From: Candidatus Gastranaerophilales bacterium
Lineage (GTDB): Bacteria; Cyanobacteriota; Vampirovibrionia; Gastranaerophilales; Gastranaerophilaceae
Assembly: GCA_944324315.1 (NCBI GenBank)
Contig: CALUVW010000005.1
Coordinates: 14,927 to 78,926, forward strand
DNA: 64,000 bases
Reading direction: 5' to 3'
The notes under the pieces are model-generated. The model had not been told where the DNA came from. It saw only the letters and a program-made list of their open reading frames with translations, and searched no databases. The stretch's first letter is position 1, and each line of letters starts with the position of its first letter. The position numbers and the translations under genes are program-made. This document shows, one piece after another, positions 2,182 to 60,216 of the stretch.

Positions 2182-2235
2182 ATGAAAAGATTATTAAGAA
2201 CTGTAAACCTCGGGGGGGGGGCGATTCAGAGCTAA
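2182..2235 (+). CDS. Upstream mini-ORF (MKRLLRTVNLGGGAIQS*) running through a G10 tract; leader cassette copy 1
   Basis: AAGGAG lies 8 nt upstream of the ATG. The C-terminus LGGGAIQS-stop is identical in copies 1-3, and tandem TAA TAA stops follow. Confidence 0.4.
   Translation: MKRLLRTVNLGGGAIQS
2212..2221 (+). repeat. G10 homopolymer inside the mini-ORF (copy 1)
   Basis: Counted directly: 10 consecutive G, flanked by CCTC and CGATTCAGAGCTAA. Confidence 0.9.
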
Positions 2236-2390
2236 TAAGAGGTCAGGAAGCCCGGAGGTCAAGAAGTCAAGCGATTAACGTCATCCTGAATTTATTTCAG
2301 GATCTAGTATTTAGATGCAAAGATGCTAAGAGGCATAGATGCAAAGTCTGTAACGTAAACACCTTCCTTCCCTTATTAGGGAAGGATAAG
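2236..2390 (+). promoter_or_regulatory. Conserved structured 5' leader of the pilin-like gene (copy 1)
   Basis: It contains AGGTCA(A/G)GAAG words, the hairpin GTCATCCTGAATTTATTTCAGGATCT (2280-2305) and the direct repeat TAGATGCAAAG at 2312-2322 and 2336-2346. An SD-sequestering hairpin CCTTCCC-TTATTA-GGGAAGG lies at 2366-2385. The leader is near-identical to 41713-41876 and largely to 28311-28420. Confidence 0.6.
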
Positions 2391-3158
2391 ATGATGGGTA
2401 GGAATCAATACCCACCCCTGCCCTCCCTAATCAGTGAGGGTGTTAAGCCCGTAGATACCTCGAATAACATTCGTCGAGCAGCTTTTACTCTGGCAGAAGT
2501 TCTCATCACCCTTGGAATAATTGGTGTTGTTGCCGCTATGACAATGCCTGTATTAATTCAAAAACACAAAAATCAGGTGACTGAAGCACGTTTAAAAAAG
2601 TTTTATTCTGTTATTAATCAGGCAATAATAATGTCAGAAGCTGTAAATGGAGAAAGAATTTATTGGGCTGATTTTTATACTGGTAAAGTTGTAAATGCCA
2701 GCACTGTAGAAAGTTGGTTTAATATATATCTTAAACCTTATATGAATATTGTAAAAACAGATAAAAACACTGTTGGTGGCGGTACTGCAGGAAATGTTTT
2801 TTCTGTTTACTTTCCAGATGGCAGTATTTTAAGACAATCCTATGGAAATGGTTATGCTGATTGGGTATTTTATCCGGATGGTGAAAAATGTGCAGAAAGA
2901 TATGGTGGAGCAGGAGGTTCAGGAATTTGCAGATTTCTTTTTTACTATAATCCTTCAGAAGAAAATAGTAAAGGTTTTGAACCATATAAATGGCTTTGGG
3001 ACGGTGACCCGGATAAATTAAAAAAAGCTTGTTATGACAATGTTTCAATTGCCAGCGGTGTAGCTCCAGGTGCTTATTGTACAGCATGGATTCAATACAA
3101 TGGTTGGAAAATCCCTAAGGACTATAAACCTCATAGTTCAAATAAGAAAAAAAGCTAA
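2391..3158 (+). CDS. Prepilin-type N-terminal cleavage/methylation domain protein (type IV pilin / pseudopilin-like) with a 36-aa leader
   Basis: The class-III signal RRAA|FTLAEVLITLGIIGVVAAMTMP has Glu at +5. The long leader is MMGRNQYPPLPSLISEGVKPVDTSNNIRRAA. Confidence 0.8.
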   Translation: MMGRNQYPPLPSLISEGVKPVDTSNNIRRAAFTLAEVLITLGIIGVVAAMTMPVLIQKHKNQVTEARLKKFYSVINQAIIMSEAVNGERIYWADFYTGKVVNASTVESWFNIYLKPYMNIVKTDKNTVGGGTAGNVFSVYFPDGSILRQSYGNGYADWVFYPDGEKCAERYGGAGGSGICRFLFYYNPSEENSKGFEPYKWLWDGDPDKLKKACYDNVSIASGVAPGAYCTAWIQYNGWKIPKDYKPHSSNKKKS

Positions 3159-11396: not shown

Positions 11397-13271
11397 ATGA
11401 AAGATAAAATTTTAAGAAAATTTATTGCAGGCTTAATGTTAACGGCATTTGTTTTTACAAACAGTGTCTTAACGGTTGCGGCAATGGAAGATGCCGGAGA
11501 GCTCAATGTTTACGGGCTTGAATCCAAACCTGATTTACGTGACAATCAGGAAGAATATTCTTTAAAATTAAAGGGGGATGTAAGTTTCACAGAGAAAAAT
11601 ATCCCTATAAGCATCAGTTTAAGAGATTCTGATGTTCAGCAAGTTTTGAGAATGTTTGCGGATAAAGCGGGTTTGAATATTATATTCCATAATTCCGTTT
11701 CAGGAACTGTAACGCTTGACTTGGTTGATGTTCCATTAAATAAAGCTTTTGACATGGTTATGGAAATAAATGACCTTAACTATGTTATTGACGGAAAAAC
11801 AATTGTTGTTGCAAAATCCGGTACTTCAGGCTTCAATCTTGCAAAACAGGATATGACTTTGATTCCGGTAAAATATATCAGTGCCTCTGCTCTTGCTGAC
11901 TTTTTAAATAAAAATATTTTTGCAATGCATAAACCGGGCTTATCAAGTTCTGATATTGTTACAACAAATCCTGTGAACAATGAGTTGATTGTATTCGGGA
12001 CGAAAAATGACGTTGCTATAGCCAAGAAAATTGTTGACAAATTTGATAAAAAGCCGCAGACAACTACATTTAAAGTTAACCATACAACTCCGGCAGAAAT
12101 GGCTACTATGATTTGTAGTATGTTGTTGCCGGCTACAGGCGGCGGTGCTACTGGCGGAGCTGCCGGTATTATGACAGGTGCGGCAGCAGCTGATTATAAT
12201 CCAAGCGGAGGTTCATCAGGCGGCGGCGGAGCTGCTGGCGGTGGCGGAGGATCCGGCAGCGGTATAGCGTTGAATGAAGGAACTATTGCTTGTACTTTAG
12301 ATGGTAAAGCAAACGGTTCGATGTCATCATTCGGATTACAAAATTTATCTGTTGCATATTATTCACAGCTAGGTACTATAAGTATTATGGGTGGTTCTGA
12401 ACAGCAGATTGAAATGATAAAAGACTTTATTGCACAAACTGATAAAAAACAGCCTCAGGCATATTTAGAGGTTGCTATTATTGAATTGAATGAAGAAGGA
12501 AGTAAAACATTACAAAATAACTGGACTTTCTTAAGCCACTCTTTCTCAGCTTCATTTGACGGAGAAACAACAAGAACAGATCCTTTACATCCTATATTCT
12601 TTAAAGGCAATGGCTATGATGTATGGGATACAACAAGTGAAGAGCCTGAAATTGTTAACACTTTAAGACCATTCAGCGGTCCGATTAATATATCTTATGC
12701 AATTAATTATTTAATCAGCAACCAGAAAGGACGTATAGTATCAAATCCTAAAATTTTAATAACTAACGGACAGGAAGCTACTATAGATATAACTCAAGAC
12801 TATATTGAATCTACAGAATCCGAACAGAGCGCATACACAGGTGGTACAATTGCTACAAGAACCTATAATATTGCAAGTGATGCAGGTATTAAGGTTGGTA
12901 TTACACCATTCATAAGTCCTGACGGCTATGTTACATTGAATATTACACCGGAATATGCTACTATTTTAAGTCAGGTTCCGGCTCAGGATGAAAATGGTAC
13001 CTATACAGCAGCAACTTTGCTGTCACGTAGAAATCTTGATTTGAAAAATGTTCGAATTAAAGATGGTGAAACACTTGTTATTGCTGGTTTAATTAACGAA
13101 GAAGAACAAAAAACGGTAGGCAAAGTTCCGTTCTTAGGTGATATTCCGGGAATTGGCGCACTGTTCAGATCAACTACTTCTACTAAAAGTAAAAATGAGA
13201 TGGTTATAATGATCACTCCAAAGATTGTTACTGATACAGAGGATGCAGTTGGAAATACCGAAACATTATAG
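11397..13271 (+). CDS. pilQ: Secretin (PilQ/GspD family) with an internal Gly-rich insertion
   Basis: Signal peptide, N-domains, and a C-terminal secretin core (VSNPKILITNGQEATI...VPFLGDIPGIGALFRS). A Gly/Ala/Ser-rich low-complexity linker (GGGATGGAAG...GGGGSGSG) is present. Confidence 0.85.
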   Translation: MKDKILRKFIAGLMLTAFVFTNSVLTVAAMEDAGELNVYGLESKPDLRDNQEEYSLKLKGDVSFTEKNIPISISLRDSDVQQVLRMFADKAGLNIIFHNSVSGTVTLDLVDVPLNKAFDMVMEINDLNYVIDGKTIVVAKSGTSGFNLAKQDMTLIPVKYISASALADFLNKNIFAMHKPGLSSSDIVTTNPVNNELIVFGTKNDVAIAKKIVDKFDKKPQTTTFKVNHTTPAEMATMICSMLLPATGGGATGGAAGIMTGAAAADYNPSGGSSGGGGAAGGGGGSGSGIALNEGTIACTLDGKANGSMSSFGLQNLSVAYYSQLGTISIMGGSEQQIEMIKDFIAQTDKKQPQAYLEVAIIELNEEGSKTLQNNWTFLSHSFSASFDGETTRTDPLHPIFFKGNGYDVWDTTSEEPEIVNTLRPFSGPINISYAINYLISNQKGRIVSNPKILITNGQEATIDITQDYIESTESEQSAYTGGTIATRTYNIASDAGIKVGITPFISPDGYVTLNITPEYATILSQVPAQDENGTYTAATLLSRRNLDLKNVRIKDGETLVIAGLINEEEQKTVGKVPFLGDIPGIGALFRSTTSTKSKNEMVIMITPKIVTDTEDAVGNTETL

Positions 13272-13288
13272 AATAAAATATCAATAAG

Positions 13289-15298
13289 ATGAATGAGCTA
13301 CTTAACAGGTTAAAAAACAGTATCAATACCCAGATACTGAATAAAGTAAACAGCACACTATTGGAACAATATAAATTTGTTCCAATTAGTGTTAAAGATA
13401 ATTTCCTTTTTGTAGCAATAAATTCTACCTCTGATAAAGATGTTATAAACCTTAAACTGAAAGAGTTTTATCCCCAACAGATAAAATTTATACAGGTGCC
13501 CGATCAGGACTTGCTGGATTTAATTGAAAACATAAAATCTGATATGCAAAAATCAGGCCCTGACGATGGTACATCAAAGCAGGTCAGACTCGGAGAACTT
13601 TTAGTTCAAAAAGGTTATATCAATGATGTTCAATTGCTGCAGGCTCTGGCTGAGAGTAAAAGACAAAAAATTCCTATAGGTTCTACTCTTTTTAAACTCG
13701 GATTTATTTCGCTTGATCAACTTAAAGAAATCTTGCATCTTCAAACGGGTTATGATCTTGTAACTCCTGAACAGCTTGCGTCTCAGGCTAAATTTATAAA
13801 AATTCTTCCGGAAGATTTTATCAAAACAAATAAAATTATTCCGATATCTTCTGACGGCAAGACTCTTATTCTTGGTGTTGTTACCCCTGTTAAACCGGAT
13901 ATTCTTAAAGATATTATTTATTTGACAGGACAAAATCCAAAACAGCTTTTGATGACTCATTACGAGTTTGAAAACTCGTTAAACACATTTTTCAGTGAAC
14001 AGAAAAAGGAAACTGAAAAAGTTATCAAAGAAATCGAAAGTGAAGTTGAAGAGCTTGAAGTTGAAGAATCTTTGTCTGATATGGTTGATAAACAGCTGAA
14101 AGATTCAACCGGTTCAGTTGCAAAATTCGTAAACCAGATTATTACAAATGCGATTGACAATAAAGTATCAGATATCCACATAGAACCAAGATTGACAGGG
14201 TATATCGTAAGATACAGAAAAGACGGTATGCTGCAAAAAGTTCTTGATATTCCGCCAAAAGTTGAAACCTCGGTTATTGCACGTTTTAAGGTTTTGTCAA
14301 GAATGAACATCGCAGAACACAGACGACCTCAAGACGGTACGTTTTCCATAAAGTATAAAAACGGATCTTATGACTTCCGTATAAATACTCTTCCTGTTTC
14401 CGGTAAAGAAAAAGTCTGTATTCGTGTACTTGCTCCTGCAGTAAGTTTGAATGCCGAAGATAAAAATATTAAGTTAGTTGGCGGAACTGATGAAGATATT
14501 GCTAAAATTAAAAATATGGTAAGTTGTCCAAACGGTATTATTCTTACATCCGGTCCTACCGGTTCTGGTAAAACAACTACTTTGTATTCGGTATTAAAAA
14601 GTTTGAATGACGAAGATGTTAACATTACTACAATTGAGGACCCGATAGAAATTAAACTTGAAGGTATTAACCAGTCACAGATTAATGCAAAAGCCGGTAT
14701 TACATTCGCATCCTGTATGCGTGCTATCTTAAGACAAGACCCGGATATTATCCTTGTTGGTGAAATTCGTGACTACGAAACATTAGAGATTGCGATATCC
14801 GCGGCATTGACAGGTCACCTTGTATTAAGTACCGTTCACACAAACTCTGCAGCCGCAACAGTTACCCGTTTGATTGAAATGGGAGCAAAAGATTATCTCG
14901 TATCATCAACACTATCAGGGGTTATTGCTCAACGTCTGGTCAGAAAACTTTGTGATGATTGTAAAGAAGAATATTTCGCAAGTCATGAAGAAGCAAGGCA
15001 AATAATCGCAAATGAAGATGAAATTCAAGAATTTATGAAAAAACCGATTTATCGTGCAAAAGGTTGTAATAAATGCGGATTTACCGGTTATAAAGGCCGA
15101 CTTGGCGTATATGAAATTATGACAATTAATAAAGAAATTAAAAAGTTAATTGCAAAGGGTGCTCATGATTTGGAAATTGAAGAATCTGCAGTTAGACATG
15201 GCATGAGGACACTTAATCAATCATGTATCAGCCATATACTTAATGGCATGACAACAATTTCTGAATTTGTAAGGGTACTCGGTGTTGTTAACGAATAG
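13289..15298 (+). CDS. pilB: GspE/PilB-family type IV pilus / T2SS assembly ATPase
   Basis: Walker A GPTGSGKTT, Asp and His boxes, and a tetracysteine motif CDDC...CNKC. It also has T2SSE_N-like N-terminal domains. Confidence 0.9.
   Translation: MNELLNRLKNSINTQILNKVNSTLLEQYKFVPISVKDNFLFVAINSTSDKDVINLKLKEFYPQQIKFIQVPDQDLLDLIENIKSDMQKSGPDDGTSKQVRLGELLVQKGYINDVQLLQALAESKRQKIPIGSTLFKLGFISLDQLKEILHLQTGYDLVTPEQLASQAKFIKILPEDFIKTNKIIPISSDGKTLILGVVTPVKPDILKDIIYLTGQNPKQLLMTHYEFENSLNTFFSEQKKETEKVIKEIESEVEELEVEESLSDMVDKQLKDSTGSVAKFVNQIITNAIDNKVSDIHIEPRLTGYIVRYRKDGMLQKVLDIPPKVETSVIARFKVLSRMNIAEHRRPQDGTFSIKYKNGSYDFRINTLPVSGKEKVCIRVLAPAVSLNAEDKNIKLVGGTDEDIAKIKNMVSCPNGIILTSGPTGSGKTTTLYSVLKSLNDEDVNITTIEDPIEIKLEGINQSQINAKAGITFASCMRAILRQDPDIILVGEIRDYETLEIAISAALTGHLVLSTVHTNSAAATVTRLIEMGAKDYLVSSTLSGVIAQRLVRKLCDDCKEEYFASHEEARQIIANEDEIQEFMKKPIYRAKGCNKCGFTGYKGRLGVYEIMTINKEIKKLIAKGAHDLEIEESAVRHGMRTLNQSCISHILNGMTTISEFVRVLGVVNE
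13586..13744 (+). other. MshEN-like tandem motif (candidate c-di-GMP-binding region) within the pilus ATPase
   Basis: The two motifs are RLGELLVQKGYINDVQLLQALAES and IGSTLFKLGFISLDQLKEILHLQ. Both follow the RLGxxLLxxGLIxxxxLxxxLxxQ pattern described for MshE-type N-domains. Confidence 0.5.
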
Positions 15299-15306
15299 GA
15301 GAAATA

Positions 15307-16530
15307 ATGGCAATATATAATTACATAGCTTTAAAAAATAATAAAGATATCGTAAAAGGTAAAGTTGATGCCGAAGACTTGAGAGAAGCAAGAGAAAGTA
15401 TTCGAAAACTCGGCTTTATTCCGACAAAAGTTTATGAGGAAAAAGGCAAAGAAGACAATAAAGCCGCTAAGGGAGATGTAAAAGGCGGGAAAATTCAAAA
15501 ACTCGGGCTTCAAGATCGTATTGATTTCACCTCAACTTTGCAAATATTGGCTCAGGCAGGTATTCCTATTATTGAATCTTTGATGTTTATTGAAAACGAT
15601 GCGGCAAAGCTCAGAGTAAGACTTGTTGCAAAAGAATTAAGACGTCAGATTATGGCAGGTGCTACATTTGCTGATACGGTTGCAAGATATCCCGAACAGT
15701 TTGGACAGGTATATATCGGTCTTGTAAAAGCCGGTGAAGATTCCGGTGAACTTGAAAAAACTTTGCAACGTCTTTTGGAATTGCAGACAAAAGAGGCAAA
15801 TATCAGAGGTAAAGTTATCGGAACATTGATGTATCCGATGTTCGTTATTGTTTTGGCAGTAATTATTGTACTTGTTATGTTAATGTTCGTATTCCCTGTA
15901 TTCAAAGAAATGTTTGACGGTATGGGAAAAGAACTGCCATGGATTACGGCGACATTGATGAGTGCCGGTGTGTTCTTAAAAACATACTGGTTTTTTGCTC
16001 CGATTATATTAGGTTCTATGGTTGGTTTTTGTACATTCATCATGAGATGGCAGCCTTCAAAAAGAAAAGTTGACGAATATGTATTAAAAATTCCTCTTTT
16101 ATCTGATTTGATGCAATTTTCAAACTTTGCAAACTTTGTTGCGGTTATGCAGGTTGCGTACGACGCAGGTGTTCCGATTATTGAGTGTTTATACCTTGCG
16201 AATTTGACTCTTACAAACTATACACTTAAAACAAAAATAGAAGCAGCAACTCTAAAAGTTCAACAGGGGCAGCATTTATCTGTTGCATTAAGATCAACTG
16301 GGGTTATGCCAAAGATGATTTTGTTTATGATTGCAACCGGTGAACAATCTGGTCGTTTGGGTGATATGCTTTTGCAGGCAACATCTTATATTGATAAAAA
16401 ACTTGATACAATTATTGATACAATGACAAAAATGATTGAGCCGATAATGCTTATCGTAATTGGTAGTATTGTATTGACATTGGCTCTTGCACTTTACTTA
16501 CCGCTGTTCAATTCTTATATGACAGATTAG
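15307..16530 (+). CDS. pilC: GspF/PilC-family platform protein
   Basis: 407 aa. It has two repeated T2SSF domains and three TM segments, and follows the ATPase by 8 nt. Confidence 0.9.
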   Translation: MAIYNYIALKNNKDIVKGKVDAEDLREARESIRKLGFIPTKVYEEKGKEDNKAAKGDVKGGKIQKLGLQDRIDFTSTLQILAQAGIPIIESLMFIENDAAKLRVRLVAKELRRQIMAGATFADTVARYPEQFGQVYIGLVKAGEDSGELEKTLQRLLELQTKEANIRGKVIGTLMYPMFVIVLAVIIVLVMLMFVFPVFKEMFDGMGKELPWITATLMSAGVFLKTYWFFAPIILGSMVGFCTFIMRWQPSKRKVDEYVLKIPLLSDLMQFSNFANFVAVMQVAYDAGVPIIECLYLANLTLTNYTLKTKIEAATLKVQQGQHLSVALRSTGVMPKMILFMIATGEQSGRLGDMLLQATSYIDKKLDTIIDTMTKMIEPIMLIVIGSIVLTLALALYLPLFNSYMTD

Positions 16531-16547
16531 TGAAAAGGAATTTATTT

Positions 16548-17366
16548 ATGAAAAAAACGTATGTAATTACGGGGACAACTTCCGGTATAGGGAAAAACCT
16601 GCTTGAAGTCTTTGCAAAAAATAACATTGTTTTTGCAGGCTATAGAAATGAAAAATATCTTGAGGATTTAAAGGCGGTCTCGGATAATGTAATCCCTTTT
16701 TTCATAGACATGGAAAATAAATCATCAATTGCACAGGCTGCAGCATTTATTAAATCTAAAACAGATAAAATTGATACCTTGATAAATGTTGCAGGATGTG
16801 TTGTTGCAGGATTAATGGACAGAATTGATGTTGATGATATAAGAAAGCAGTTTGAAGTTAATACTTTTTCGCATCTTGATTTGACACAAAGATTATTACC
16901 TTTATTAAAAGGCGGAAAAATCATAAATATAAGTTCTATGGCAAGTTTTGGGATATTTCCTTTTGTTGCCCCATATTGTGCCTCAAAACGGGCTATGGAT
17001 ATTTTGTTTAATTCTCTTGCTGTAGAATCAAACATAAAAGTAGTTTCGGTTAAACCTGGAGTCATTGCAACTCCTCTGTGGGGAAAATCCGTTGAACTTA
17101 ATAAAAAATCAATTGAAAATTGTAAAGAATATGAAAAACAGATGCAATATATGATTTCGAATGCTAAAAAGAACGAAACCAATGGTCTTGATGTTCATAA
17201 AGTCACTGACCTGATAATAAAAATTGACGGAGATGACAATCCTAAAGCATCTTACACAGTAGGTAAAGATGCATTTTTTGCTAAATTAGCATCAAAACTT
17301 CCTCAAGATTGGATTAACAAGATGATAAGGTACGGAATAAAATCTAAGATTTCTTCCGTAAAATAA
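16548..17366 (+). CDS. SDR-family oxidoreductase
   Basis: ITGTTSGIG loop and a YCASK catalytic motif. The ATG at 16548 is preferred over the GTG at 16530. Confidence 0.75.
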   Translation: MKKTYVITGTTSGIGKNLLEVFAKNNIVFAGYRNEKYLEDLKAVSDNVIPFFIDMENKSSIAQAAAFIKSKTDKIDTLINVAGCVVAGLMDRIDVDDIRKQFEVNTFSHLDLTQRLLPLLKGGKIINISSMASFGIFPFVAPYCASKRAMDILFNSLAVESNIKVVSVKPGVIATPLWGKSVELNKKSIENCKEYEKQMQYMISNAKKNETNGLDVHKVTDLIIKIDGDDNPKASYTVGKDAFFAKLASKLPQDWINKMIRYGIKSKISSVK

Positions 17367-17580
17367 TTTCGTAATTTAAAATATCCGCTATTTCTGCAAG
17401 TTCAGAGACTCGAAATGTTTTGTTGCGCAGTTTGTTACTAAGGTTGTTATTACTATCACTTTTACCGTATTTTTCGTTAACAAGTTCTTTTACTCTTTTT
17501 ACGGTAAGACCGTCAATGGCTGCGAGATATTTGATTTGTAGGGCTAATTTATCTGTTTCAAGTATTATTTCTCTGTCCAT
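17344..17580 (-). CDS. Small putative DNA-binding (HTH-like) protein, divergent from a pilin-like gene
   Basis: 78 aa. The pattern LTVKRVKELVNEKYG...LSNKLRNKTFRVSELAEIADIL resembles short XRE/phage-repressor-type HTH proteins. This is a weak call. Confidence 0.35.
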   Translation of the reverse strand: MDREIILETDKLALQIKYLAAIDGLTVKRVKELVNEKYGKSDSNNNLSNKLRNKTFRVSELAEIADILNYEIILRKKS

Positions 17581-17622
17581 TAAAGAATAATACTATTTAT
17601 TAATTAATAAAGACAATAGATA

Positions 17623-17651
17623 TTGACATTATTAATTATATAGTTAATAAT
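17623..17651 (+). promoter_or_regulatory. Sigma70-like promoter for the pilin-like gene 17691 (TTGACA-16/17-TAATAAT)
   Basis: TTGACA at 17623-17628 and an AT-rich -10 near 17645-17651. It is embedded in TTAATTAAT palindromic words. Confidence 0.4.
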
Positions 17652-17690
17652 ATATATTAAATAATTAATTAATATGACAGGAGGATTTTT

Positions 17691-18326
17691 ATGAAAAAAG
17701 GGTTTACGTTAGCTGAAGTTCTGATAACACTCGGTATTATAGGCGTAGTAGCTTCAATAACCATGACGTCGTTGATTGCAGAGCATCAAAAGTTGGTGAC
17801 AGTTACAAAATTGAAAAAAGCTTATAACGTCTTAAATAATGCTATTAGATTGGCAGAAGTTGAACATGGAGATAAGTCTCAATGGGGTGATTCTAATAAC
17901 GATGAATGTGGACTTTATATTTATAATCATTATGTTAGAGGTAAATTAAAAGTTCTTAAAGATGTAGAAGATACTGGCTCTAATTGTCAATCTGATCCTG
18001 AAATTGTATTAGCTGATGGTATTGTTCTGGATTCTTTTATTAATTGGAGTCCCTTAAGTCGGGACGCTTTCACTGTTGATATAAATGGGGCAGCGGGGCC
18101 TAATAAAGTGGGTAGAGATAGATTTGACTTTTTCTATTCAAGTAAATATGGATATGCGCCTGCTGGTTTTTGTGATCATCCGGAATGGTCACCTTCCGAT
18201 TGTGTCGCAACAGATGGTAGTAGGAATGATGTGAAAAATGCCGGATGTAATGAGCGAAATAAGTTTTTATGTGGTGCATTAATTATGATGGATGGGTGGC
18301 AAATAAAAGACGATTATCCATGGTAG
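17691..18326 (+). CDS. Prepilin-type N-terminal cleavage/methylation domain protein with a classical short leader
   Basis: MKKG|FTLAEVLITLGIIGVVASITM, and a C-terminal VDINGAAGPNKVGRDRFDFF motif shared with the other paralogues. AGGAGG SD. Confidence 0.85.
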   Translation: MKKGFTLAEVLITLGIIGVVASITMTSLIAEHQKLVTVTKLKKAYNVLNNAIRLAEVEHGDKSQWGDSNNDECGLYIYNHYVRGKLKVLKDVEDTGSNCQSDPEIVLADGIVLDSFINWSPLSRDAFTVDINGAAGPNKVGRDRFDFFYSSKYGYAPAGFCDHPEWSPSDCVATDGSRNDVKNAGCNERNKFLCGALIMMDGWQIKDDYPW

Positions 18327-28196: not shown

Positions 28197-28225
28197 TTGA
28201 AAACATTTAAGAAATATGTTAAAAT
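28197..28225 (+). promoter_or_regulatory. Sigma70-like promoter for leader cassette copy 2 (TTGAAA-17-TGtTAAAAT)
   Basis: TTGAAA at 28197-28202, a 17-nt spacer, and an extended -10 TG-n-TAAAAT at 28217-28225. Confidence 0.5.
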
Positions 28226-28256
28226 ATAAATATCATAAAAAAGAAAAGAGTAATGT

Positions 28257-28310
28257 ATGAAGAGATTAACTATGCCTGAAATCCTCGGGGGGGGGGCAAT
28301 TCAGAGCTAA
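28257..28310 (+). CDS. Upstream mini-ORF (MKRLTMPEILGGGAIQS*) through a G10 tract; leader cassette copy 2
   Basis: Same C-terminus and stop context as copies 1 and 3. The SD (AAGAG) is weak. Confidence 0.35.
   Translation: MKRLTMPEILGGGAIQS
28287..28296 (+). repeat. G10 homopolymer (copy 2)
   Basis: Counted directly. Confidence 0.9.
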
Positions 28311-28355
28311 CAGGAGGTCATGAAGCCCAGAGGTCAAGAAGTCAAGAGATTAGTT

Positions 28356-28380
28356 TCATCCAGTATTTATTTCAGGATCT
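28356..28380 (+). repeat. Degenerate copy of the dispersed hairpin repeat within leader cassette 2
   Basis: In TCATCCAGTATTTATTTCAGGATCT the left arm is mutated relative to copy 1. Confidence 0.5.
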
Positions 28381-28492
28381 AGCATTTAGATGCAAAGATG
28401 CTAAGAGGCATAGATGCAAAGCAGCATTTATTCTTGCCGAAGGTGCTACGCACGTAGCCCACTCTCAGAATATTCGTCGAGCAGCTTTTACT

Positions 28493-29272
28493 TTGGCAGA
28501 AGTTCTCATAACCCTCGGCATAATTGGAGTAGTTGCCGCTATGACAATGCCGAGTTTGATTACTAATTACCAGAAAAAGGTCTGGACTGATCAGCTAAAA
28601 AAAACTTATTCTACCTTGAATGAAGCATACCGTCAGACTTTAGCACACGCAGGCTGTACAGATGCAATAAGCTGCGGGTTTATGGATGTTGGGAGCTCTA
28701 TACTTCCAGAATTTAGCACTGATTTTTATATTAAATTATTAAATAACTTGAAGCATGAAAATTTATTATTAGTTCCAAATATGAATAATATGACTTCAGA
28801 AGAATTGAATGATTTTAGTGCAAATGTAAATCAGGAACTTGGAAATTATTATACAACTTTAACCTTTAAATTAATGAAAAATAATCGTCAAGTAGATCTT
28901 TATGATTTGATTCCATCTTACTATGTTGAAAAAGGTGGATTTTTTGCGAATACAACTGACGGAGCAATGATAGCATTCTTTAATCCTGGTATCTTGATAG
29001 ATGTCAACGGAAGTAAGGGGCCAAATGTTGTAGGCAGAGATGTTTTTATGTTTTCTGCAACTGATAATGCTATAGTACCAGAATCTTCTATTGCTTATAG
29101 GAATTTTCTTTCGAGAATTTATCCTAAAGCAGCTGATGAATCCGGCCTTTCAGATACACTGCTTGACTATAATGAATTGAAAAGTAAATGTTTATCTTCT
29201 ACCAGCGCTTCTACTTCAGCTGTATGCTGTGCAGATATAATTGTGTTTGATGGCTGGGAGATGAAGTATTAA
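28493..29272 (+). CDS. Prepilin-type N-terminal domain protein without a conventional in-frame start; frame open upstream to 28280
   Basis: IRRAA|FTLAEVLITLGIIGVVAAMTMP is encoded from 28472. The only track start (TTG 28493) lies inside the mature FTLAEV motif. No ATG, GTG or TTG occurs in frame between 28280 and 28492. C-terminal motif IDVNGSKGPNVVGRDVFMF. Confidence 0.7.
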   Translation: MAEVLITLGIIGVVAAMTMPSLITNYQKKVWTDQLKKTYSTLNEAYRQTLAHAGCTDAISCGFMDVGSSILPEFSTDFYIKLLNNLKHENLLLVPNMNNMTSEELNDFSANVNQELGNYYTTLTFKLMKNNRQVDLYDLIPSYYVEKGGFFANTTDGAMIAFFNPGILIDVNGSKGPNVVGRDVFMFSATDNAIVPESSIAYRNFLSRIYPKAADESGLSDTLLDYNELKSKCLSSTSASTSAVCCADIIVFDGWEMKY

Positions 29273-29284
29273 TATTTATTAATT

Positions 29285-29310
29285 AAAAAGCCTCCATATG
29301 GAGGCTTTTT
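29285..29310. terminator. Bidirectional intrinsic terminator
   Basis: Perfect palindrome AAAAAGCCTCC-ATAT-GGAGGCTTTTT between convergent genes. Confidence 0.8.
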
Positions 29311-29743
29311 AATGTTTAGATTTTTCAATTCTTAAATACATTTCATTTAAGATTTCTTTTAAATCTCTTTTATTATAATATTCTCTGTTTATTTGGTAAA
29401 AAGTTTGTGTTTGAGGGTTTATAACAAGCATAACCGGCAATTTTTCATCAATTCCGAATGCATCATAAAGTTTTTCGTTCTCTTCAATTTTTGTATTGAG
29501 TATGCAGAAATTATATTTCCCTTTAAATTCATCATATATCATTTCGCCTATAGGTGCCATTTTTATAACAGAGAATATATCACGTGAATTTGCAAATACC
29601 AGAATAAACGGTAAATTTTGAGTTATTCCCTGTTCATAGGGAACCCCTATATAAGGTTTGTTAAGATATTCCTTTATGTTTAGAGCATAACAATTGTTGG
29701 GGAAAATTAAGAGTATAAAAATTAATAACAGCAGTTTTTTCAT
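29309..29743 (-). CDS. Secreted thioredoxin-fold-like protein (no CxxC), hypothetical
   Basis: It has a signal peptide. The FILVFANS...LPVMLVINP pattern resembles the thioredoxin-like fold. This is a weak call. Confidence 0.35.
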   Translation of the reverse strand: MKKLLLLIFILLIFPNNCYALNIKEYLNKPYIGVPYEQGITQNLPFILVFANSRDIFSVIKMAPIGEMIYDEFKGKYNFCILNTKIEENEKLYDAFGIDEKLPVMLVINPQTQTFYQINREYYNKRDLKEILNEMYLRIEKSKH

Positions 29744-41617: not shown

Positions 41618-41655
41618 AAAAAAGGTAATATTTAAGTTTAATAAGGAGCAGATGT

Positions 41656-41712
41656 ATGAAAGATATGTTAAAAAATATTAAGTACCTCGGGGGGGGGGCG
41701 ATTCAGAGCTAA
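41656..41712 (+). CDS. Upstream mini-ORF (MKDMLKNIKYLGGGAIQS*) through a G10 tract; leader cassette copy 3
   Basis: AAGGAG lies 7 nt upstream. It has the same LGGGAIQS-stop end as copies 1 and 2. Confidence 0.4.
   Translation: MKDMLKNIKYLGGGAIQS
41689..41698 (+). repeat. G10 homopolymer (copy 3)
   Basis: Counted directly. Confidence 0.9.
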
Positions 41713-41762
41713 TAAGAGGGCATGAAGCCTGGAGGTCAAGAAGTCAAGCAAGTTTACAAAAA

Positions 41763-41789
41763 GTCATCCCGAACTTGTTTCGGGATCTC
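41763..41789 (+). repeat. Dispersed hairpin repeat copy with compensatory changes (GTCATCCCGAACTTGTTTCGGGATCTC)
   Basis: The stem is CCCGAA/TTCGGG, versus CCTGAA/TTCAGG in copy 1. Confidence 0.7.
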
Positions 41790-41876
41790 ATAATTAGATG
41801 AAAAGATGCTAAGAGGCATAGATGCAAAGTCTGTAACGAAAACCCCTTCCTTCCCTTATTAGGGAAGGATAAGAGG

Positions 41877-42704
41877 ATGGGTATTAATCAATACCCACCC
41901 CTGCCCTCCCTAATAAGGGAGGGTGTTAAGCCCGTAGATACCTCGAATAACATTCGTCGAGCAGCTTTTACTTTGGCAGAAGTTCTCATCACCCTTGGAA
42001 TAATTGGTGTTGTTGCCGCTATGACAATGCCTGTACTTATAAATAATTATCAAAAACACGCTTTGAAAAATCAATTCAAAGTAGCATATTCATTGTTAAA
42101 TCAGGCATTACTATCGGCCATAGAGAAAAACGGCGGTGCATTTAACTGCTGGTATTGGAAAACTATTCCGTATCCTGGTGCAGTATGCAAAAAGTGGGAT
42201 GGCAGTGCCTGTGCTGAGTACTCTATGCCTGACGGTTCTCCATTACCTGCAGATTATAACGGAAAATTTGACGAATGTGCAAATATGTATAATGCATTAC
42301 ATTCTGAATTGAAAGTCGTTTCTGAATGTAAAAATAATTCGACCAATCATTGTGTTCCTGAATATAAAGGAAAAGATGTTGTAAATGCTGATCCTGACAA
42401 AACTATGACGGAAATATTAGGTGCGTGTCCGAATTTAGCAACAAGTAATTTGAATAGGTTTTCTTACAAAATTTTATCTAATGGTATAATAACCGGGTAC
42501 GAGCGGTCAGGCTGGGTCTTTATTGTAGACGTAAACGGAAGTAGAGGCCCGAATAAATGGGGTTATGATGTTTTTCTTTTTGCCCCACAACTTCATGGTT
42601 CCAATAGTTCAGGAATGATTATTTTTGGCGGTATGAAAGGGAATGGTTGTAATTTAAAAGAACCGGGAGGCTATTATACACATGAAATGCTAGAAAATTA
42701 TTAA
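41877..42704 (+). CDS. Prepilin-type N-terminal domain protein with a long leader
   Basis: MGINQYPPLPSLIREGVKPVDTSNNIRRAA|FTLAEVLITLGIIGVVAAMTMP. The first 160 nt or so are near-identical to 2391-2560. C-terminal motif VDVNGSRGPNKWGYDVFLF. Confidence 0.8.
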   Translation: MGINQYPPLPSLIREGVKPVDTSNNIRRAAFTLAEVLITLGIIGVVAAMTMPVLINNYQKHALKNQFKVAYSLLNQALLSAIEKNGGAFNCWYWKTIPYPGAVCKKWDGSACAEYSMPDGSPLPADYNGKFDECANMYNALHSELKVVSECKNNSTNHCVPEYKGKDVVNADPDKTMTEILGACPNLATSNLNRFSYKILSNGIITGYERSGWVFIVDVNGSRGPNKWGYDVFLFAPQLHGSNSSGMIIFGGMKGNGCNLKEPGGYYTHEMLENY

Positions 42705-59197: not shown

Positions 59198-60040
59198 CTA
59201 TTTACATTTAGTTTTTGTTCCCCATTGTAAATCATCGCAGTGAAGATAATCCATATTTTCATTTTGTATGACCCATGCGGTACAATTACTGGCTAAAGCC
59301 CTGTTGAAACTACAAGTTTGTGAAAAATCTGGATGTTCTTGTTGTGTTCCGGTTGGCAGTATTCTGTCTTTTTTCATTTCAAACACAAAAAAGTCTTTGC
59401 CAAATTGGTTTGGTCCCCTGTAATATCCGTTTGTATCTACAAATATTTCTGCACAGTTGGTGGCATTGCTATATAGACCAATATAGTCTGTTGAGCATTT
59501 TTTAAATCCGGGGCTGACATGGAATATAATTAAAGTACCATCTTCTAAAACTAGATGTTTGTAGGAACCTTGAAAATTGTAAGCTATATGCGGAGTTCCA
59601 TTTAAATATAAATATTTTTTTGAACCAATGCAGGTATTTATTTTTTTGCAGTCATCAGCTATTTTAAAATATGGTTTAAAATACTGATTAAGTAGTACTT
59701 GTGAACCTTCTTTTGAATCCTCATCTTTTAAATCCCATTGATCAACTGTCATTCCAGTGTCATTAATCGCACTTACAAGTGCCTGGCTTAAAATAGAATA
59801 TACTTTTTTCAATTTGGCAACGGTTTCTTTTTCTCTATGATCTTGAATAAGAGATGGTATTGTCATTGATGCAACAACACCGATGATACCGAGGGTGATA
59901 AGAACTTCAGACAAAGTGAATGCAAATTTTTTTAGTCGATAAGACGTTAAGACGTTAGGACGATAAATGCGTTTCGGGGAATTACTCTTCCCCTCCCTTA
60001 TCAGGGAGGGGGGTAGGGGTGGGTATTGATCAAAACCCAT
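59198..60040 (-). CDS. Prepilin-type N-terminal domain protein with a long leader (cassette copy 4)
   Basis: MGFDQYPPLPPSLIREGKSNSPKRIYRPNVLTSYRLKKFA|FTLSEVLITLGIIGVVASMTIP. C-terminal motif VDTNGYYRGPNQFGKDFFVFEM. Confidence 0.8.
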   Translation of the reverse strand: MGFDQYPPLPPSLIREGKSNSPKRIYRPNVLTSYRLKKFAFTLSEVLITLGIIGVVASMTIPSLIQDHREKETVAKLKKVYSILSQALVSAINDTGMTVDQWDLKDEDSKEGSQVLLNQYFKPYFKIADDCKKINTCIGSKKYLYLNGTPHIAYNFQGSYKHLVLEDGTLIIFHVSPGFKKCSTDYIGLYSNATNCAEIFVDTNGYYRGPNQFGKDFFVFEMKKDRILPTGTQQEHPDFSQTCSFNRALASNCTAWVIQNENMDYLHCDDLQWGTKTKCK

Positions 60041-60177
60041 CCTAACCTTCCCTAATAAGGGAAGGAATTTATTTTTACGCGGGCACTGCCCGCCAATAAC
60101 AGCCTGCCCTCCTGCCTTCTTGACCTCCGGAAATCTGTTTATATTAAACTCACCTGAAAATACAGTATCTGTCAGTC
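60041..60177 (-). promoter_or_regulatory. Leader of pilin copy 4: SD-sequestering hairpin plus a GC hairpin
   Basis: CCTTCCC-TTATTA-GGGAAGG (60046-60065 on the + strand), then TTAGG-ATG. It also has a GCGGGC-AGT-GCCCGC hairpin and the word CCGGAGGTCAAGAAG shared with copies 1-3. Confidence 0.55.
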
Positions 60178-60216
60178 TTACGGGGGGGGGGCAATTCTAA
60201 GCTTTCTATTTAACAT
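60178..60216 (-). CDS. Upstream mini-ORF (MLNRKLRIAPPP*) running through a C10 tract; leader cassette copy 4
   Basis: A strong SD AGGAGG lies 5 nt upstream. It starts 9 nt after the stop of 60226..60870. Confidence 0.4.
   Translation of the reverse strand: MLNRKLRIAPPP
60182..60191. repeat. G10 (top strand) / C10 (gene strand) homopolymer, inverted module
   Basis: The top strand reads CGGGGGGGGGGCAATTCTAAGCT, matching the top-strand CGGGGGGGGGGCAATTCAGAGCT of copy 2. The associated pilin gene is on the opposite strand. Confidence 0.9.

Follow-up and report, generated by a model that had tools for sequence, protein, structure and literature searches.

How can a pilin-like gene be expressed if its reading frame contains no usable start codon? 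This question is raised by copy 2, one of six pilin-like genes in the window, that is, the whole 64,000-nucleotide (nt) stretch of DNA analysed here (34.7% G+C), which belongs to a Candidatus Gastranaerophilales bacterium (assembly GCA_944324315.1, contig CALUVW010000005.1). Read back from the first residue of its mature N-terminus FTLAEV (28487), the frame of copy 2 is open to 28280, where the listing of open reading frames (ORFs) places TGA 28277-28279 before it. The first ATG, GTG or TTG after this stop is TTG 28493, which lies within FTLAEV itself, as the initial annotation had described. Four of the six genes carry a run of ten identical bases (the tract) in their leader, and in copy 2 this is a G10 inside a short upstream ORF (mini-ORF). 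Copy 2 is best explained, with a probability of about 0.6, as a phase-variable (contingency) pilin-like gene that is present in the "off" state and is subject to slipped-strand phase variation at this tract.

Start site and reading frame of copy 2

A sigma-70-type promoter, a Shine-Dalgarno (SD) region and the mini-ORF precede copy 2 (Table 1). The promoter matches 10 of 12 consensus positions, includes the extended -10 TG and is kept in orthologous alleles. Together with the mini-ORF and an intact body of 261 codons that ends in DGWEMKY, close to the family consensus DGWKMNY, it bears out the earlier description of a gene that has retained its promoter, mini-ORF and C-terminal motif. ATG 28257, which opens the mini-ORF, is predicted to be the real translation start of copy 2. 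The mini-ORF lies one frame ahead of the pilin frame, and thus a +1-nt change or a -1 frame shift is required to enter the latter.

Other candidate starts within this region were rejected. ATG 28253 shares the pilin frame but is closed off by TGA 28277. Recoding of TGA (genetic code 4 or 25), which would free this ATG, was discarded because the 43 long ORFs of the window are uninterrupted in code 11, none containing an in-frame TGA; 28 of them end in TAA, 13 in TAG and two in TGA, the last two also ruling out recoding, and TGG is used 121 times. TGA is therefore a genuine stop here and cuts ATG 28253 off from the copy 2 pilin. Two small ORFs start out of frame within the conserved leader block, one at ATG 28320, which is not conserved (AGG in copy 1), and the other at ATG 28414, which opens an ORF of 50 amino acids (aa).

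ATG 28253 and ATG 28257 overlap as ATGTATG (28253-28259), and the same arrangement is present in copy 3 (41652-41658), with one ATG in each of two frames. At a locus in another genome (L029/P0092), the first ATG of the overlapping pair is unblocked and is in the pilin frame at G10, whereas a stop intervenes in copies 2 and 3 of the window. ATGTATG could be the remnant of a two-frame start arrangement.

The N-terminus of the encoded protein, AA/FTLAEVLITLGIIGVVAAMT (the slash marks the cleavage site), conforms to the [G/A]/F-x-x-x-E motif followed by a hydrophobic helix, and copy 2 scores above the cut-offs of TIGR02532 (18.9 bits; cut-off 16.3) and PF07963 (21.7 bits; cut-off 21.2). An AlphaFold2 (AF2) model (predicted local distance difference test, pLDDT, 79; predicted template-modelling score, pTM, 0.76) has a helix at residues 5-56 and a globular domain with strands. 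The globular part corresponds to DUF6613 (PF20318); a Foldseek search of this domain against PDB returned no significant match, with gonococcal pilin 2hi2_A ranking fifth (E = 2.2). The short basic leader from a canonical start that is usual in prepilins is absent, as no in-frame start exists at 28280-28486.

Tract length and the frame of copy 2

When the tract was resized in silico, G8, G11 and G14 fused the mini-ORF to the pilin, yielding a product of 337-339 aa, whereas G7, G9, G10, G12 and G13 yielded a peptide of 16-22 aa. Tract length in copy 2 would therefore toggle between a full-length and a short product, a feature of contingency loci. Read-through of the tract is expected to generate the trans-frame junction peptide ILGGGGNSELTGGHEAQR (…LGGGGNSEL…). 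A further feature of such loci, a run of at least 7-8 nt between the start codon and the gene body above compositional expectation, is also present in copy 2. The window contains four G/C 10-mers against 0.004 expected, every one of them in a pilin leader, and these are its only G/C runs longer than 6 nt. The 190-nt leader of copy 2 has no stop in the pilin frame, compared with five and three in the other two frames, and the conserved leader block (28297-28420) would be the middle of a 77-aa leader peptide that is translated in the "on" phase alone.

In the "off" state, the strong promoter would be transcribed and ribosomes would load at the SD and ATG 28257, with G10 directing them to TAA after 17 codons, and no pilin would be made. 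Slipped-strand mispairing at replication would generate G11 (or G8), and the same start would then read through the stop-free leader (28297-28486) into the pilin, producing a preprotein of 337-338 aa with a leader of 76-77 aa, which prepilin peptidase would cut at AA/FTLAEV. The tract would be the sole access of copy 2 to a start, while copies 1 and 4 would have a second route via an internal ATG. We infer that the tract of copy 2 itself switches at the DNA level; the long leader would presumably be tolerated and cleaved.

Tract-bearing pilin copies of the window

The four tract copies share one module, consisting of promoter, SD-ATG mini-ORF, 10-nt homopolymer and leader, and the offset between mini-ORF and pilin is -1 in all four. 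In silico, G8 or G11 converts copy 1 into a fusion of 324-325 aa, and C8 or C11 converts copy 4 (minus strand; ORF 59198-60040) into one of 338-339 aa. Read-through of copy 3 is blocked by a TGA within the leader in the pilin frame. Five pilin paralogues were compared, the sixth being cut off by the end of the window; their bodies are 22-28% identical past residue 30, and the leader and first 30 N-terminal codons are nearly identical in several of them.

In copy 4 (60170-60216, minus strand), GCTTAGAATTG-C10 corresponds, as its reverse complement, to G10-CAATTCAGAGC of copies 1-3 (28287-28307 in copy 2). The tract and approximately 11 flanking bases are thus inverted relative to the rest of the leader, and Gly codons are replaced by Pro codons. 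This swap suggests that the DNA run, and not the peptide, is the conserved feature.

Tract-bearing pilin loci across Gastranaerophilales

A protein search combined with a scan of species-representative genomes placed the family in gut metagenome-assembled genomes of Gastranaerophilales (Melainabacteria). Among the pilin loci of the species-representative genomes, a G/C run of at least 7 nt occurs in the preceding 500 nt in 36 of 79; adding the four copies of the window and four loci obtained via protein matches gives a set of 44 tract loci. The tract is 10 nt long in 32 loci, 9 in five, 11 in five, 8 in one and 16 in one. An SD-ATG is located upstream of it in nearly every locus, at 20-30 nt in most loci and at 19-34 nt in all except three (69-84 nt), and the mini-ORF peptide carries the motif (F/L)RRA(F/L)GGG or (A/C)PPP across loci. 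No in-frame ATG lies between tract and pilin in 22 of the 44 loci, copy 2 among them.

The spacer between tract and FTLAEV is open in the pilin frame across the family. In 42 loci (7160 nt), this frame contains 10 stop codons, confined to four loci, whereas the other two frames contain 229 and 187; 38 of 42 loci have a spacer that is fully open in this frame, and none has one that is open in either of the others (0/42 and 0/42). When the count is restricted to the 30 spacers with a length of at least 90 nt, the pilin frame is open in 27 (Poisson p ~1e-74 from the spacer stop counts). The spacers are up to 400 nt long, and the open pilin frame usually ends 3-20 nt upstream of the tract. The pilin frame has remained open although the assembled tract puts the start out of frame in approximately 39-40 of the 43 loci with an assignable SD-ATG, and selection must therefore see read-through translation.

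Tract polymorphism associated with on and off states was observed at related loci. Three loci share 97% identity over 200 nt and are distinguished by the tract alone, which is G8 and in frame in L002, G10 and out of frame in L006, and G11 and in frame in L185; the in-frame protein of L002 reads MKRIYLKKARRGGHRPAFALTEGATHV…AFTLAEV. A second related pair consists of L004, which G9 puts out of frame, and L184, which G11 puts in frame. L183/P0113, a member of the window's leader family, has an 11-nt tract (G9-A-G) and a single ORF of 337 aa (MKTLRFIKRLGGGSTSRLIGVQEARRSRGQAINVILNLFQDL…AAFTLAEV), and such a tract would be expected if a point mutation had locked a G11 allele. Many further database proteins start with MK…(F/L)GGG(G) and run via a long leader into the pilin. 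A metagenome scan for strain variants with the leader 17-mer GAGGTCAAGAAGTCAAG returned 98 stretches, and the 80 that were screened were chance matches without leader context.

Gene calls in this family are inconsistent (P0001, P0002, P0021, P0118, P0114). Some are cut to MTMPS or MAEV in the mature protein or begin with MAEGATHV in a repeat unit of the leader, and others extend into AT-rich promoter sequence. The public N-termini of this pilin family are therefore unreliable, and the pilin repertoires of metagenome-assembled genomes are mis-annotated through truncation by gene callers (e.g. at MTMPS) or spurious extension.

Alleles of copy 2 and evidence against phase variation

The orthologous locus was compared in ten alleles, namely the window and nine further assemblies from different samples. 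Promoter and mini-ORF are conserved, and the body is intact in nine of the ten alleles. In the tenth (L187), the run equivalent to A8 at 28597-28604 is shortened to A7, which splits the gene into pieces of 108 aa and 219 aa, and the allele lies on two contigs. The protein cluster of copy 2 comprises 20 members from at least 30 contigs, with "off" calls of 243-244 aa, mostly from the internal MTMPS methionine.

L187 and L192 both come from one sequencing project. In each of them, the tract has lost its seventh G to a substitution (T and A, respectively), and L187 additionally carries T9 in place of T8 upstream. The two alleles may be genuine, locked off or in decay, or may instead reflect errors in calling poly-G bases.

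Two leader haplotypes occur at the orthologous locus (28302-28360) when the window is compared with L001, L188, L189 and L191, one identical to the window and the other resembling copies 1 and 3 (SELIRGHEAWRSRSQAINVTLNLFQDLV). Nearly all of the changes that separate L001 from the window in the conserved leader block are non-synonymous, and they bring L001 nearer to copies 1 and 3, suggesting gene conversion among paralogous leaders. Signs of gene conversion are found in leaders alone and not in bodies.

Several observations speak against phase variation as the explanation of copy 2. The tract is 10 nt long and "off" in all ten alleles (eight G10, L187 G6TG3 and L192 G6AG3), and the length polymorphism found at related loci is not seen at the copy 2 locus itself, where 8/8 uninterrupted alleles are G10. 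The interrupted tracts of L187 and L192 are locked at the "off" length, and the body of L187 is frameshifted at the A8 run. The 337-aa "on" product of copy 2 is absent from a database of 5.8 billion proteins. The ratio of non-synonymous to synonymous substitution rates (dN/dS) between the window and L001 is 0.49, a value that with only 17 substitutions cannot be told apart from neutrality (p = 0.13). At the family level, 33-34 loci need +1, six need -1 and 3-4 of 43 are in frame, where a third would be expected, and neutral simple switching does not predict such a one-sided off bias, although p-values overstate the case because the loci are related and not independent. The constant tract length of the eight uninterrupted alleles of copy 2 is likewise left unexplained by simple switching. 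Moreover, we know of no precedent for a 77-aa prepilin leader.

By analogy with the argument made for modal G9 in Campylobacter jejuni, the dominance of length 10 could reflect a mutational attractor, and "on" cells may be counter-selected in the gut. As no "on" allele of copy 2 was found, the shift may take place in DNA or in RNA, and some lineages may be in decay. The proposal that copy 2 is expressed only after a +1-nt or -1-frame event is nevertheless favoured by the open spacers (38/42), the G8, G10 and G11 alleles and the G9 and G11 pair of related loci, and L183, even though copy 2 itself contributes no "on" allele.

Alternative explanations

The most serious rival, albeit an unlikely one, is recoding at the RNA level on a fixed G10 or C10, in which RNA polymerase adds a G or the ribosome slips by -1 (on GGG GGG GGG or CCC CCC CCC). 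Every "off" paralogue would then supply pilin at a low and constant level without a change in DNA, and changes in DNA length would be a side effect. Recoding would explain why the tract is exactly 10 nt in the four window copies and in 8/8 uninterrupted alleles from different samples, and why 28 of 32 length-10 tracts need exactly +1 nt or a -1 frame shift. It is also consistent with the use of both G and C tracts, as hybrid realignment would predict, and with a leader frame that is open despite an out-of-frame DNA arrangement at nearly every locus. There are established examples of transcriptional slippage at long homopolymers, such as Shigella mxiE and Thermus dnaX, but the slippage sites known from bacteria consist for the most part of A or T, and to our knowledge family-wide slippage on G/C runs has not been described in bacteria. 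Furthermore, in-frame DNA alleles (G8, G11 and G9AG) reach consensus in some populations, which would be unnecessary if the shift were purely at the RNA level, and 10 is not a universal length, since G10 places L069, L079 and L186 in frame and certain loci with G11 require -1. The 84-141 nt of RNA that were folded downstream of the tract show no gain in stability over shuffled sequence (z -0.9 to +0.5) and hence offer no stimulator for -1 frameshifting; in particular, no stimulatory structure is found 5-9 nt downstream of the tract. If recoding were true, start-less pilin paralogues of gut Melainabacteria would be expressed at a low level and stochastically from unchanged DNA.

It is improbable that copy 2 is instead a decaying gene without a start, its ATG module deleted, its tract stuck off and its intact body a sign of recent loss. 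Decay would account for the missing module with hairpins and ATG (kept in the other three tract copies), the "off" state of 10/10 alleles, the substitutions in two tracts, the split body of L187 (on two contigs) and a dN/dS not significantly below 1; its main support comes from L187 and L192. It would also fit the SD region of the window, which differs at 28247 from that of L001 and L187 and is weaker (AAAAGAG vs AAAGGAG); initiation in the window allele may accordingly be less efficient than in these two. However, the start-less layout with a tract as the only access occurs in 22 of 44 tract loci from many species, with intact bodies and stop-free leaders, which argues for a maintained design. 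In copy 2 itself, the 190-nt leader is stop-free in the pilin frame alone, three of the five substitutions in its 60-nt unit (28421-28480) relative to L001 are synonymous in that frame, and the body, promoter and mini-ORF have been retained as described above.

A regulatory function of the mini-ORF is very unlikely. In this reading, the pilin would be initiated independently, from a non-canonical codon somewhere in 28280-28486, and Gly-Gly-Gly or Pro-Pro-Pro would cause ribosomes to stall in the mini-ORF. The conserved mini-ORF peptide motif would suit such an upstream ORF, and the pilin frame of copy 2 includes ATT and ATC codons. They are the only near-cognate codons there, however, and none has an SD at a suitable distance. 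This reading also leaves unexplained why the pilin frame is open back to the tract, and no further, in 38 of 42 loci and why in-frame alleles exist, and the Gly/Pro swap in copy 4 favours the DNA run over the peptide as the conserved feature.

The other proposal of the initial annotation, a silent cassette with a promoter that donates sequence by recombination, is hardly tenable. In such a system, copy 2 would supply an expressed pilin much as pilS supplies pilE, and the near-identical leaders and first 30 N-terminal codons of the paralogues and the apparent conversion of the L001 leader towards copies 1 and 3 would suit it. However, conversion is seen in leaders alone, and bodies 22-28% identical past residue 30 leave no homology through which cassettes could be exchanged. 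Unlike pilS, every copy is a complete unit of transcription and translation, from promoter, SD and start to a full N-terminal domain and a terminator, and no expression locus with flanking recombination signals was seen.

Modular structure of the leaders

A stretch of approximately 60-70 nt that includes a pair of hairpins and an internal ATG in copies 1, 3 and 4 is missing from copy 2. The sequence at 28421-28470 is not an unrelated replacement, as had been supposed, but part of a canonical in-frame 60-nt unit (28421-28480) that stands where the other copies have the hairpin and ATG module and is retained once in copy 2. In canonical form (AAF(I/T)LAEGATHVAHSQNIRR), this unit is common in relatives, and its homologue in copies 1 and 3 is the EGVKPVDTSNNIRR segment. 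Where the internal ATG is present (copies 1, 3 and 4), its SD is sequestered by the first of the two hairpins.

The 60-nt unit, which encodes AFTLAEGATHVAHxxxxRR and can be repeated in tandem, occurs one to four times per leader in many Gastranaerophilales pilins, including P0101, P0084, P0086 and P0044. A minisatellite or a mobile palindromic element is a candidate origin of the 60-nt tandem unit, and the units possibly act as decoy cleavage sites. The leaders as a whole are mosaics of short palindromic modules (2330-2480, 41800-41960 and, on the minus strand, 59930-60060 of the window), such as CCTTCCCTTATTAGGGAAGG, a C-rich hairpin translated NQYPPLPSLIREG, and ATCCTGAA…TTCAGGAT translated ILNLFQDL. 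These modules recur between paralogues and species, always in frame and stop-free, and resemble the in-frame palindromic elements of Rickettsia.

A structured RNA or riboswitch in the conserved 135-nt leader was considered and rejected, since its folding is like that of shuffled sequence and Rfam offers no match; a search of the whole window gave none at gathering thresholds, and only noise at E <=10 around copy 1.

Other features of the window

A pilus or type II secretion-like cluster (11397-18326) is located in the same window as copy 2, comprising genes for a secretin, an ATPase and a platform protein, followed by a short-chain dehydrogenase gene and, at its end, a pilin without a tract (Table 1). 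No prepilin peptidase was identified among the nine window ORFs scanned for it, the other window ORFs not having been searched. Of the six pilin-like genes, the two without a tract have normal short leaders.

Table 1. Coordinates of the copy 2 locus, its paralogues and neighbouring pilus-related genes in the 64-kb window
Feature	Position	Strand	Details
Sigma-70-type promoter, copy 2	28197-28225	+	TTGAAA 28197-28202, 17-nt spacer, TAAAAT 28220-28225, extended -10 TG 28217-28218
SD region, copy 2 mini-ORF	28243-28250	+	GAAAAGAG in the window; GAAAGGAG in orthologues L001 and L187
Mini-ORF, copy 2	28257-28310	+	MKRLTMPEILGGGAIQS and stop; ATG 28257, TAA 28308-28310, 17 codons, contains G10
G10 homopolymer, copy 2 (proposed switch)	28287-28296	+	Inside the mini-ORF, 30 nt after ATG
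Conserved leader block, copy 2	28297-28420	+	Common to copies 1 and 3 (alignment); stop-free in the pilin frame
60-nt in-frame unit, copy 2	28421-28480	+	AAFILAEGATHVAHSQNIRR; pseudo-copy of the pilin cleavage motif and palindrome GCTACG-CA-CGTAGC
Prepilin cleavage site and mature pilin-like protein, copy 2	28481-29272	+	AA/FTLAEV, F at 28487; 261 aa and stop
A8 run in copy 2 body	28597-28604	+	A7 in L187; AAAGAAAA in other alleles
Intrinsic terminator, copy 2	29282-29313	+	
Copy 1	2182-3158	+	Promoter, mini-ORF, G10 (2212-2221) and leader as in copy 2; in-frame internal ATG 2391; mature N-terminal F (FTLAEV/FTLSEV) at 2484
Copy 3	41656-42704	+	Mini-ORF, G10 (41689-41698); internal ATG 41877 available; mature N-terminal F at 41967
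Copy 4	59198-60216	-	Mini-ORF MLNRKLRIAPPP and stop; C10 on the sense strand (60182-60191); internal ATG 60040; mature N-terminal F at 59920
Secretin	11397-13271		
T2SSE ATPase	13289-15298		
T2SSF platform protein	15307-16530		
Short-chain dehydrogenase	16530-17366		Next after T2SSF
Pilin without tract	17691-18326		Canonical leader MKKG/FTLAEV
Sixth pilin, without tract	63564		TTG start; runs off the window end

Implications for Gastranaerophilales

The Gastranaerophilales, which are related to cyanobacteria but do not photosynthesise, are common and as yet uncultured inhabitants of the human and animal gut, and their interaction with the host is almost unexplored. Sets of phase-variable surface structures are a hallmark of immune, phage or niche-switching pressure and have been documented mainly in pathogens, among them Neisseria, Campylobacter, Haemophilus and Helicobacter. 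With a poly-G/C frame switch in approximately half of the sampled pilin-like genes (36/79), and four such genes within a single 64-kb stretch, a large, previously undescribed set of phase-variable surface filaments is implied. The literature on Melainabacteria or Gastranaerophilales in connection with phase variation, homopolymeric tracts or pilins yielded no description of such a system.

Comparison with known systems

Like type IV pilins and pseudopilins (TIGR02532, PF07963), copy 2 has an [A/G]/FTLAEV site, Glu5 and a hydrophobic helix, and secretin, ATPase and platform genes are nearby. It departs from them in its predicted leader of 77 aa, compared with the usual 5-30 aa, in the Ala at residue -1 and in the absence of a significant PDB match. 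The presence of several pilin paralogues with a conserved 5' region is shared with pilE/pilS of Neisseria. However, silent pilS-type copies are promoterless, 5'-truncated and share variable regions, and no such cassettes were seen here, where each copy has a promoter, SD, start and terminator and the bodies are only 22-28% identical.

Programmed transcriptional slippage is known from T9 in Shigella mxiE, A9 in Thermus dnaX and transposases of insertion sequence (IS) elements. As in these systems, where DNA length is constant and some transcripts gain a base, two frames are joined at a homopolymer of roughly 9-10 nt. Copy 2 matches this in its invariable length of 10 and its offset of -1, and 28 of the 32 length-10 tracts of the family are alike, yet other combinations exist. 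The known cases involve A or T runs, whereas the present family, known so far from DNA alone, uses G or C and includes in-frame DNA alleles.

The poly-G/C loci of C. jejuni (PMC3401435, PMC4965091) offer a further parallel, with G/C runs of 8-11 nt in surface-structure genes of an AT-rich genome, the use of either strand and a sharp modal length. In C. jejuni, the modal length of poly-G in surface genes has been attributed to mutational bias, short tracts gaining and long tracts losing bases (PMC3401435). The mode is 9 in that species and 10 here, and the tracts described here occupy a single position (the mini-leader) in one gene family. They are also far more skewed towards off (approximately 39-40 of 43), and the eight uninterrupted alleles of copy 2 are without length variation.

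In Neisseria pilC, poly-G in the 5' reading frame drives phase variation (Jonsson 1991, as cited in PMC5953494). PilC is a tip or assembly protein, whereas the tract described here, recognised from sequence, lies in the leader of a pilin-like subunit, upstream of the cleavage site, and recurs in dozens of paralogues from many species with a translated spacer of up to ~400 nt. Nevertheless, both involve a G run near the 5' end of a pilus-related gene whose length sets the frame, and the run lengths of pilC (9-20) fall in the same range. The poly-G/C switch of Gastranaerophilales pilins, apparently undescribed until now, thus appears to be a further case of a known type of switch.

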